33,302 nt of DNA from Candidatus Coatesbacteria bacterium (lineage in GTDB: Bacteria; JAFGND01): NCBI GenBank assembly GCA_016927185.1, contig JAFGND010000105.1, positions 1-33,302 on the forward strand, written 5' to 3'. Below, piece by piece: positions 14,781-17,574 of this stretch. Both the position numbers and the translations under genes were made by a program. The notes beneath the pieces are model-generated. The model worked only from the letters and a program-made list of their open reading frames with translations, was not told the origin of the DNA and ran no database searches. The first letter of the stretch is position 1. Each line of letters begins with the position of its first letter.

Positions 14781-14806
14781 AAAGCACAGGGGAAATCCTG
14801 CGCTTT
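14781..14806 (-). terminator. Intrinsic terminator after the propeller gene pair
   Basis: Minus strand AAAGCGCAGG-ATTTCC-CCTGTGCTTT (10-bp stem with one G-U pair) 5 nt after the stop at 14812, followed by a pyrimidine-rich tail. Confidence 0.65.
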
Positions 14807-14811
14807 TCAAT

Positions 14812-15012
14812 CTAGTTAATCTTTACAATCCTCTTTGTTTCCTTCCCAGCCTTCACTATATAAACTCCCTCTCTCCATTTGCTTGTATCAATAGAATGCT
14901 TGCCTTTATCGAGGTTCATAATCAGCTGACCGGTCAGGGAATAGATTGCTCCTGAAGTAGGCAGGGAGAGAGACAATCTGGAGGAGAAGGGGTTGGGGGA
15001 AATGGAGAAGGA
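14812..15012 (-). repeat. Sorting-domain repeat, copy 1 (201 bp)
   Basis: Differs from 16295-16495 at 14 of 201 nt by my count; colinear with 32930-33130. Confidence 0.95.
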
Positions 15013-15360
15013 CTGCCTTGGTAAATATTTACCTGATTTCTTACTTGTAATATCAAGAATATCAACTATTGAAAAAAAACTGTCACTTCTGTCAGAAGTT
15101 GTTCCATGCAAGTCAGTTACTTCAATAAGGCACCTGTTTGAATGAGTATTAGGTATAGTCCATTGATAAATACCCTCACCAGCCGGCACTTCAGCAATAT
15201 CTATCCATTGATTTCCAGCATCAGTACTATATTTTATTGAAACAGAATCAACATACATGCTTCCCCAAATAATGTCATGAACTGTGCCAATAAGCCATTT
15301 TTCTCCTCCGTTAGGAGTATCGACTTTAATAACAGTATCTCCTGGTTCCATTGTTTCTAT

Positions 15361-16210
15361 GGCATAAAGATAACCACTATCATAAACACCACCACTTCCA
15401 ATATAAACAACTCCATCTGAGACACAGGGAGAAGAGATCTGAGCTCCCTGCGTCTCAGATCTCCAAACCAGAACTCCATTTGAGCAGTTTATTGAATAAA
15501 TATATACTTTACCTTCAATATGTCTTTCACCATTTTGAACATAAACAACTCCATCTGAGACACAAGGAGAGGAGGAAATATAATCACCTGTCTCATATCT
15601 CCATTTAAGAGTTCCATCTGAACAGTTTATTGCATAGAGATAATTGTCACTACTTCCAACATAAACAACTCCATCTGAGACACAAGGAGAGGACCAAATA
15701 TTACCACCTGTAAGATATCTCCATTTAAGAGTTCCATCTGAGCAGTTTATTGCATAAAGATAATTATCAGTACTTCCGACATAAACAACTCCATCTGAGA
15801 CACAAGGGGAAGAATAAACAGTATTACCTGTCCTATATCTCCATTTAAGAGTCCCATCAGAGCAGTTTATTGCATAAAGGAACCAATCATAACTTCCAAC
15901 ATAAACAACTCAATCTGAAACACAAGGGGAAGAATAAACAGTATAAAGTATCGGGTATCTCCATTTAAGAGTTCCATTTGAACAGTACAGTGCATAAAGA
16001 TAACTGCCTTCATAAACACCAGCACTTGCAAGATAAACAACTCCATCTGAGACACAAGGTGAGGAGTAAACATAATCAACTGTCTTATAACTCCATTTAA
16101 GAGTTCCATCAGAGCAGTTTATTGCATAAAGATAATGATAAGCCCCAACATAAACAACTCCATCAGAGACACAAGGAGAGGATTCACTGTAAGCTGTCTG
16201 ATATTTCCAT
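15361..16210 (-). repeat. Intragenic tandem array of seven ~120-bp (40-aa) propeller-blade repeats
   Basis: ATAAACAACTC-anchored units at 15403, 15541, 15661, 15781, 15901, 16034 and 16150; units 15541-15660 and 15661-15780 differ at 12 of 120 nt by my count. Confidence 0.95.
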
Positions 16211-16294
16211 ATCAAATCCCCTGGAGCTGAAAAAAGAGAAGATGCTAATGATAGCAGAATTATAATAATTAAAAGATTTCTCATTTTAAACTCC

Positions 16295-16495
16295 TTAATT
16301 AATCTTTACAATCCTCTTTGTTTCCTTCCCAGCCTTCACTATATAAACTCCCTCTCTCCATTTGCTTGTATAAAGTTCATGCTTACCTTTATCTAATTTC
16401 ATAATCAGATGACCGGTCAGGGAATAGATAGCCCCTGAAGTAGGCAGGGAGAGAGACAATCTGGAGGAGAAGGGGTTGGGGGAAATGGAGAAGGA
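16295..16495 (-). repeat. Sorting-domain repeat, copy 2 (201 bp)
   Basis: Near-identical to 14812-15012, including long runs of identical synonymous sites. Confidence 0.95.
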
Positions 16496-17515
16496 TTTGG
16501 AAGGAAGCGATGAAGTTTTATAGTTACTATCAAAGTCTGTTTCCTGCAATGGACTGAAGGAAATTGACTCTATTGTCATATCAGAGTTATTCCTGAATGA
16601 TTTTATTAAATGACCGTCTGTTAAATCAAAGTAATTTGACTGGCGAAGAGTTCCTGAAAGACATTTGCTGCCATCAAAACTGATGGCAAGGCTAGACATT
16701 CAACTGCAATCATCCTTGAATTCGAAAATTTTCACTCCATCTGCTAATCTCCAGTAATAGAAAAAATCAAACTGTCCTCCAAGAGCGTAATTCCCGTCAG
16801 GGGAAAACAATACTTCATTGAAGCCACTTGCCCCTTCGAATTTCCGTAGTATGACACCATCTTCAAGTCTTCTGTAAATCATTGTTTTACTGTGATCACC
16901 TGAAAGCAGATATTTGCCGTCAGGACTTATTGCAATAGACATTATAGGGGAATCGTGCCCTTGAAAAGTCTTCAGGCAGTTTCCTGTTTCAATATCCCAG
17001 TACCTGATTGTCATGTCACCACTTCCAGATACTATATATTTTCCATCAGGGCTTATCTTTACTGAAATTATCATGTCAGTATGGCCTTCGAAAGTCTTTT
17101 CATTTGATGGATTTGCGATTTCCCAGTATTTCACTGAATGCTTGGAAGCATCCATTTTTGGATTGTCGCTTTCTCCTGAAGATGCAACAAACCTGTCATC
17201 TGGCGAGAAAACAGAACTCATTACATTATATTTATGACCTTTATATACAAGAAGGCACTTGCCATCGCTGAATCTCCAGTATCTAACTGTTCCATCAGAA
17301 CTTCCTGAAAGAATATATTCACCACATGAGCTGACATCCACTGACCAGACACTTGAGGAGTGACCTGCAAGAGTTCTTATGCATGCTCCATCACTTATCC
17401 TGTAACACCTGACAAAACCGGTTGAAGAACCTGTCACGAAATATTTAGCTTCTTCTGACTGAATGCCTGAGCTCAGCAATAGCAACATGATTGAAATCAA
17501 GATCCCCATTTTCAT
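16295..17515 (-). pseudogene. Secreted WD40-repeat beta-propeller + T9SS-type sorting domain; one frame with a single in-frame TGA (16700-16702); nonsense allele or recoded
   Basis: AGGAGG RBS before ATG 17515; signal peptide; GH...SGS.D.T.RYW WD40 repeats; the track ORFs 16700..17542 and 16295..16699 abut in frame and the last WD blade spans the TGA. Confidence 0.85.
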
Positions 17516-17544
17516 AATTAGAACCTCCTGATAATCTATCAAGT

Positions 17545-17574
17545 ATAATAGAAAACTTAAGCTTAATGAGTCAA
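17545..17574 (-). promoter_or_regulatory. Putative sigma-70 promoter for the WD40/PQQ gene pair
   Basis: Minus strand TTGACT-18 nt-TATTAT, about 30 nt upstream of ATG 17515. Confidence 0.5.

Follow-up and report, generated by a model that had tools for sequence, protein, structure and literature searches.

Decoding of UGA as selenocysteine by SelB has its prototype in Escherichia coli fdhF, where a selenocysteine insertion sequence (SECIS) lies inside the open reading frame (ORF), with an 11-nt spacing rule and a requirement for G-U in the loop. Here we describe two adjoining genes on a contig of a Candidatus Coatesbacteria bacterium (JAFGND010000105.1 of assembly GCA_016927185.1). The window, as we call this stretch of 33,302 nt, makes up a complete contig in a genome of 2.99 Mb (109 contigs, 35.9% GC). 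Both genes lie on the minus strand, a WD40 gene at 17515-16295 and a PQQ-like gene at 16284-14812 (translated with TGA as X), and each carries one in-frame TGA, at 16700-16702 and 15910-15912, respectively. The WD40 gene resembles SelB/SECIS genes such as fdhF. It has an in-frame UGA and, 11 nt downstream, a hairpin whose small loop begins with G-U; the genome encodes a complete set of SelA, SelB, SelD and tRNA-Sec, and the geometry of the hairpin is that of the genome's own FdhA gene. Unlike the SelB/SECIS prototypes, the host protein is a secreted repeat propeller and not an oxidoreductase, and the selenocysteine would lie in a variable surface loop. We suggest that the WD40 TGA is a selenocysteine codon and that the PQQ TGA is a plain nonsense mutation, a joint reading to which we assign a probability of roughly 0.6. 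For the WD40 codon taken by itself, selenocysteine is the most likely reading and a probable one.

The second described system to which the locus can be compared is the type IX secretion system (T9SS). Like T9SS type A cargo (TIGR04183-type), the two proteins start with a signal peptide and end in a PF18962 domain; unlike the known cargo, the WD40 gene has a UGA, probably recoded, upstream of its sorting domain. The features of such cargo are found for both genes, namely a signal peptide, a C-terminal Por_Secre_tail, and T9SS genes in the genome, which encodes SprA and two PorU sortases. We identified the signal peptides by visual inspection of the hydrophobic N-termini. The WD40 gene has 406 codons including the TGA and encodes a seven-blade propeller (Pfam WD40 PF00400, 149 bits), followed by a T9SS type A sorting domain (Por_Secre_tail) at 16298-16528 on the minus strand. 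The PF18962 match to this domain was precomputed for the 134-aa tail of the protein (P0123), and the domain scores 126.8 bits with a hidden Markov model (HMM) built in this analysis. The PQQ-like gene, of the BamB type, has 490 codons including its TGA and encodes a seven-blade propeller (PQQ_2 PF13360, 126.1 bits), a middle domain and a T9SS sorting domain (PF18962, 34.1 bits at residues 428-487). Over 200 nt, the sorting domains of the two genes are 94% identical. As the sequence-only reading of this DNA had claimed, each gene is one frame broken by a single TGA, and the minus-strand translation contains no other stop or frameshift in either. The two genes probably form a transcription unit and belong to a very large family of secreted beta-propellers.

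A third comparison concerns the genetic code. Like sites in the SR1/Gracilibacteria code (table 25, UGA = Gly), the PQQ TGA stands where six sister blades have Gly. Unlike those organisms, this genome does not fit table 25, has no tRNA-Gly with a UCA anticodon and ends many genes with TGA. We therefore rejected a reassigned code, whether table 25 or table 4. The window reads well under table 11, whereas under table 25 adjacent genes run together and spurious frames open up, and the number of ORFs of at least 100 aa in the window goes from 49 under table 11 to 101 under table 25. Among the 132 sorting-domain family segments that have a stop, 19 end with TGA, and TGA is thus a normal stop in this organism.

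The genome has the machinery to decode UGA as selenocysteine. A search for selA, selB, selC, selD and UCA-anticodon tRNAs found all of them; aragorn predicts 44 tRNAs, and tRNA-Sec is the sole one with a UCA anticodon. The score of SelB is 334.6 bits (curated cut-off 242.25), that of SelA 342 bits (cut-off 267.9) and that of SelD, which is of the selenocysteine type, 327.3 bits, above its curated cut-off; selD has an in-frame TGA of its own. The selA ORF (G000:C83, L039 1459-2610, minus strand) is intact but short, with 383 aa that cover model positions 55-451; stops are flagged just upstream of it, and the N-terminal domain may be missing or split.

Other genes of the organism also carry in-frame TGAs. 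These include FdhA (CARL-U-HS) and HdrA (DCSI-U-IL, with Cys in one HdrA paralogue), and several exported proteins, namely a beta-helix protein (CGG-U), a thioredoxin-like protein (G-U-PYC), a lipoprotein (U-C) and a papain-like T9SS protein. The papain-like gene (G000:C66:53393-55246, L047; Peptidase_C1 + Por_Secre_tail) has its TGA aligned to Cys in 7/7 paralogues, and its product is, to judge from this alignment, likely a T9SS-secreted selenoprotein with selenocysteine at a Cys position. On C43, a related gene contains a TGA as well as a TAA. The beta-helix candidate (G000:C68:81443-82174, L046) and the U-PYC candidate (G000:C70:8836-9597) share a C-terminal motif, WGGIK[KR]LY[RK], which may be a sorting tag. 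A coding-score scan for in-frame stops was swamped by adjacent genes and antisense frames, and it served for leads only.

The WD40 TGA is codon 272 and stands in a C-x-U context (KDDCS-U-M). It is spanned by 46 paralogue alignments, which support an otherwise intact frame. The proposed SECIS hairpin, TGCCATCAGTTTTGATGGCA, lies at 16669-16688 on the minus strand and has an 8-bp stem (8-9), a loop of GUUU (GTTT in the DNA) and a spacer of 11 nt (10-11) after the TGA. It folds at -12.2 kcal/mol (+8..+45), and a fraction of 0.0042 of 1900 background windows from the family folds as well or better. Across the 59 equivalent WD40 positions no fold is as stable. Its sequence occurs once in the genome, and the stem is built of rare GC-rich codons, with GCC, ATC and GGC making up 10%, 14% and 12% of their codon families.

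The same geometry recurs behind other in-frame TGAs of the genome. The FdhA hairpin has a spacer of 12 nt, a stem of 6-7 bp and the loop GGUCU; that of the CGG-U beta-helix gene has a spacer of 10-11, a stem of 6-7 and the loop GUU, and that of the U-PYC gene has a spacer of 11, a stem of 6 and the loop AGUUAAG. Longer spacers are found in HdrA (21, stem 6, loop GGUC) and in the U-C lipoprotein gene (17, stem 6, loop GUC). The papain-like T9SS gene has an imperfect hairpin, missed by the strict finder. Since this gene has its TGA at a Cys position, strict hairpins do not seem to be needed at every site.

Turning to the propeller family itself, the sorting-domain HMM matches 135 stop-to-stop segments in the genome, and each window protein has well over a hundred partial matches. 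We sought interruptions by reading upstream of short or start-less segments and by finding stops spanned by alignments to intact paralogues. In the latter census 35 of 15,284 junctions are spanned (17 TGA, 9 TAA, 9 TAG), of which five TGA and one TAA were retained as family in-frame stops and the remainder set aside by eye. Set aside were FdhA, HdrA and a pair of papain-like genes, which are members of other families; six short matches that are out of frame and fall on the upstream extension of one C77 frame, which are artefacts; and other single-hit or gapped alignments, which are too weak. The five TGAs are those of the two window genes and of genes on C10, C29 and C6. The latter three all have a spaced hairpin (loci L042-L044): a WD40 gene at G000:C29:2897-4183 (spacer 9-10, stem 7-8, loop GUC), a WD40 gene at G000:C10:1-1431 (spacer 13, stem 6, loop GGGA) and a PQQ-type gene at G000:C6:1978-3288 (spacer 11, stem 6, loop CGUGU). 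A sixth TGA lies at codon 99 of a PQQ-type lipoprotein gene without a sorting domain (G000:C94:27433-28602, L045), where the hairpin has a loop identical to that of the C6 gene, CGUGU, and a spacer of 18. The TAA replaces a Tyr codon (C47:5904-6818, L048), and the same finder sees no hairpin behind it. Two further family genes are frameshifted (C34, C35).

A qualifying hairpin was defined by a spacer of 9-14, a stem of at least 6 bp with at most one G-U pair, and a loop of 3-7; the GU form has GU in the first three loop bases. Such hairpins follow 1097 of 32,860 family codons (3.3%) and 6479 of 180,708 codons of 400 long ORFs (3.6%), as well as 23 of 377 terminal TGAs. The GU form follows 141 of 32,556 family codons (0.43%), 469 of 142,046 TGA triplets genome-wide and 8 of 1594 in the window. 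By comparison, four of the five family in-frame TGAs have a hairpin and three of the five have the GU form. By simple arithmetic this corresponds roughly to P = 6e-6 at 3.3% and to 8e-7 at 0.43%, respectively. The stop types are skewed as well. TGA accounts for 5/6 family in-frame stops, compared with an expected share of 31-36% from codon usage (P = 0.013-0.025). It had been proposed that a random mix of stop types and frameshifts would speak against recoding; the excess of TGA is there, yet one TAA and two frameshifts occur beside it, so that this test is half against and half for recoding.

Comparison with relatives supports the WD40 stop as an old feature. A protein from another assembly (P0004, encoded on a contig of 2873 nt) has 271 aa and is 86% identical, without gaps (39/271 differences), to the part of the WD40 protein before the TGA. 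It ends with KDDCN where the window reads KDDCS followed by TGA, and so stops at the same codon. A contig of run X2, which comes from a different study and has a different habitat label, differs from the window at 16703 and 16704 in a way that matches the Ser-to-Asn change of P0004. Among the best-supported differences, beside 440 further ones, contigs of relatives share those at 16694, 16621 and 16616, downstream of the WD40 TGA; two are synonymous and one is Thr/Ser. None of the best-supported differences falls at 16700-16702 or in the hairpin, which is at most suggestive and was given no weight. Among proteins of 223-711 aa there is no close full-length WD40 form with a sense codon at the TGA. 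Judged from these sequences, the stop at codon 272 predates about 13% nucleotide divergence, over which the upstream frame stayed open and gapless. The shared stop and the open upstream frame argue against an assembly error and against a recently decayed WD40 gene. For the PQQ gene, the orthologue comparison gave nothing of the kind, since a search among proteins of 121-385 aa found only the genome's own protein and distant ones. Wider searches at the nucleotide level yielded no close DNA either: 40 genomes related only at the domain level gave just a chance 55-nt match, a scan of JGI metagenome contigs turned up 5 loci that were all distant, at 35-65% over short segments, and a scan of GTDB genome contigs found no relatives' DNA. 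Two metatranscriptome runs of the same study contain next to no sequence words of the genes.

What a selenocysteine at codon 272 might do can be considered with an AlphaFold2 model of the WD40 protein, in which U was entered as C (34 aligned sequences). The model has a mean predicted local distance difference test score of 80.8, and in it the seven blades span residues 25-321 while the sorting domain occupies 352-402. Codon 272 lies in blade 6, in the loop between strands 261-267 and 273-278, two residues after Cys270. By the convention of the WD40 fold, we take this to be the D-A loop on the top face. The residue might form a selenylsulfide with Cys270, or it might contact a metal or a ligand. 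The residues aligned to codon 272 in 61 paralogue cases are varied: S 10, G 9, Y 6, V 5, A 5, N 4, R 3, and C, E, L, W, T, P and D with 2 each. It had been suggested that Trp or Gly is common here. Gly is indeed frequent (9/61), Trp is not (2/61), and Ser is the most frequent residue (10/61). From this alignment, the proposed selenocysteine does not fit the classic pattern of Sec/Cys active sites.

We infer the following course of events. SelB with Sec-tRNA(Sec) would bind the 8-bp hairpin with the GUUU loop that starts 11 nt after the WD40 UGA, and selenocysteine would be delivered at codon 272, for which release factor 2 would compete. The complete protein of 406 residues, with selenocysteine in the top-face D-A loop of blade 6, would then be exported by the Sec translocon and subsequently by the T9SS. 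Ribosomes that stop at the UGA would yield a fragment with an incomplete propeller and without the sorting domain. The UGA of the PQQ gene would be a recent GGA-to-TGA nonsense change in one dispensable family member. The sequence-only reading had proposed programmed UGA recoding in both genes. The proposal holds up for the WD40 gene, in the specific form of SelB/SECIS-dependent insertion of selenocysteine and not as generic readthrough, given the machinery, the hairpin and the stop of the orthologue. It is not supported for the PQQ gene, where the structure is no stronger than in sister blades and the search among proteins of 121-385 aa found no orthologue. For the further idea that recoding controls whether the sorting domain is attached, we found no evidence. 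The product ending at the WD40 TGA would break off within blade 6, so that blade 7 and the sorting domain would be missing altogether; for such a product a dead end is likelier than a role as second isoform.

For the PQQ gene, a Gly codon has probably been lost. The TGA at codon 125 (15910-15912, minus strand) reads GAT TGA GTT where all six sister blades read GAT GGA GTT, as had been noted before. Residues aligned to it across the family are Gly in 210 of 339 cases and Cys in none. The RNA after it is unremarkable. At +6..+45 it folds at -3.8 kcal/mol compared with a mean of -3.82 in 117 sister-blade controls, and at +0..+50 at -6.9 compared with a mean of -6.5; the family-background fraction for the fold at this site is 0.46, and the strict finder sees no hairpin. 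One TAA and two frameshifts in the family lead one to expect about one plain TGA nonsense, and the PQQ gene is the natural candidate. We regard an ordinary nonsense lesion as the probable explanation of this TGA and a selenocysteine codon as unlikely. Some observations point the other way. A weak 4-bp stem (GGAA/UUCC) with a loop starting GUU lies 12 nt after the UGA and is possibly a poor SECIS, and 365 codons after the TGA remain open. If both TGAs were selenocysteine codons, the PQQ one with a weak or non-canonical SECIS, the operon would code for two secreted selenoproteins. This would suit an organism that appears to decode many UGAs as selenocysteine, exported proteins included, and in which the papain-like T9SS gene shows that a TGA at a conserved Cys position can go with an imperfect hairpin; the 53 nt from the PQQ TGA also fold at -10.2 kcal/mol (z = -1.87). 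But the structure is the same as in the 117 blades with GGA, the position is usually Gly and never Cys, and no orthologue was found, so that we hold two selenocysteine codons to be improbable. An error of assembly or sequencing in a repeat-rich metagenome-assembled genome is easy to imagine here, with 109 contigs, many family genes at contig ends, and PQQ blades that are near-identical repeats. However, a 279-nt contig independently assembled from run X1, which may be the source sample, has 0 differences over 15784-16062 at a depth of 15.2. This includes the PQQ TGA, which is thus real in the sample. With the separate assembly of the relative that stops at the same WD40 codon, this makes assembly error the least credible of the explanations.

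The WD40 half of our reading has its own difficulties. The usual Sec/Cys signature is missing, with Cys aligned to the TGA in only 2 of 61 paralogue cases. Qualifying hairpins are found at 5 of the 59 equivalent WD40 positions, which have no TGA; hairpins are commoner at these positions, as the repeat has Ala-Ile and Asp-Gly codons that can pair. The hairpin criteria were fixed after the sites had been seen, though they were modelled on the genome's own FdhA, and the four hairpin-bearing family TGAs are at four non-homologous positions. Rfam gives no match at the WD40 site; its 7 matches at E up to 10 include no SECIS and are all below the gathering score. P0004 is the only close orthologue found and the comparison with it covers the part before the stop, while the 134-aa tail, among proteins of 73-235 aa, matches only the window's own protein. 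The part of run X1 that was read gives no cover at 16700-16702. The missing Sec/Cys pairing, the hairpins without a TGA, the single orthologue and the evident decay of the family would suit an explanation in which each TGA is no more than a nonsense mutation, in a family that is redundant and evolves fast. The hairpin would then be a side effect of the codons of the repeat, and the shared stop would be either an old lesion or the true end of a shorter gene. Yet four of the five family TGAs have a correctly spaced hairpin against a background of 3.3%, no hairpin of its class is as strong as that of the WD40 gene, which is made of rare codons, and the part before the stop is open and gapless at 14% protein divergence. 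A product that ends at codon 271 would be without its last blade and its sorting domain, and TGA is over-represented among the stops. We therefore judge two nonsense mutations to be quite improbable. Finally, UGA is generally the leakiest stop codon, and both stops lie upstream of a sorting domain. One could thus imagine leaky readthrough, independent of a SECIS, by a near-cognate tRNA (Trp, or Gly, Cys or Arg) that sets the ratio of truncated protein to protein with a sorting domain. But aragorn finds no suppressor tRNA, the truncated products would be incomplete propellers, and the hairpin geometry fits the genome's selenocysteine genes and no known bacterial readthrough signal. Such leakiness is accordingly very improbable as the explanation of the two stops.

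Under our preferred reading, in which the WD40 TGA encodes selenocysteine and the PQQ TGA is a lesion, the WD40 gene probably encodes a new selenoprotein made by the standard bacterial mechanism, and its family is not on the selenoprotein lists consulted, insofar as these were available to us. The terms WD40, propeller and PQQ have 0 occurrences in the accessible portions of a 2026 review (PMC13188914), the deep-Sep paper (PMC12013277), the BSepDB paper (PMC13326102) and a 2022 review (PMC9312934). Words starting with "secret" likewise have 0 occurrences in the accessible portions of the three of these papers in which they were sought. The supplementary text of BSepDB, possibly partial in the form consulted, contains none of the terms WD40, propeller, PQQ, papain, peptidase and repeat. 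The accessible part of that 2026 review (PMC13188914) states that homologues with Cys exist for nearly all selenoproteins.

Selenoprotein discovery relies on Sec/Cys pairs and on redox active sites. If our reading is true, a secreted WD40 propeller with selenocysteine in a variable top-face loop, together with sister genes that have Sec-like UGAs elsewhere, would escape such methods. It would also suggest that SECIS elements arise de novo quite easily in selenocysteine-rich anaerobes, and it would bear on the open question of why and how selenocysteine is gained. The PQQ half of the finding would be ordinary gene decay. A wider and, in our view, doubtful extension is that selenocysteine is an ordinary option for variable surface positions of the huge secreted, binding-type propeller family in this organism. 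UGA nonsense mutations would then be rescued once a hairpin able to bind SelB had formed downstream through a small number of changes, most of them synonymous. Independent selenocysteine sites would have arisen at four or more non-homologous positions, and the hairpin-less PQQ TGA would be an un-rescued first step. There is also a practical consequence. An ATG directly follows the WD40 TGA (16697-16702), and gene callers therefore report a separate 134-aa ORF that contains only the sorting domain; public protein sets store the gene as pieces of 271 and 134 aa. Since gene callers split such genes, the secreted proteomes and the selenoproteomes of such uncultured bacteria are under-counted.

The sequence-only reading had described a putative promoter, two ribosome-binding sites and a terminator as looking intact. 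Both ribosome-binding sites can be read directly: AGGAGG at 17524-17529 (minus strand) lies 8 nt before the ATG of the WD40 gene (17515-17513), and AAGGAG at 16291-16296 (minus strand) of the PQQ gene overlaps the TAA stop of the WD40 gene (16297-16295). The other two signals are consensus matches only. A sigma-70-like promoter match at 17545-17574 (minus strand), upstream of the WD40 gene, reads TTGACT, 18 nt, TATTAT and agrees at 10/12 consensus positions, in a 3.5-kb region that has 27 such sites compared with 12.0 expected from shuffles. A terminator-like hairpin with 10 pairs and a T-rich tail at 14781-14806 (minus strand) follows directly after the PQQ stop.

The PQQ gene also contains a 17-bp inverted repeat at 15415-15460 (minus strand), in its last blade and 450 nt downstream of the TGA. 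This repeat folds at -31.7 kcal/mol (z = -3.9). One of its arms codes for the conserved SPCVSD motif, and the other codes for RSETQGA just upstream.

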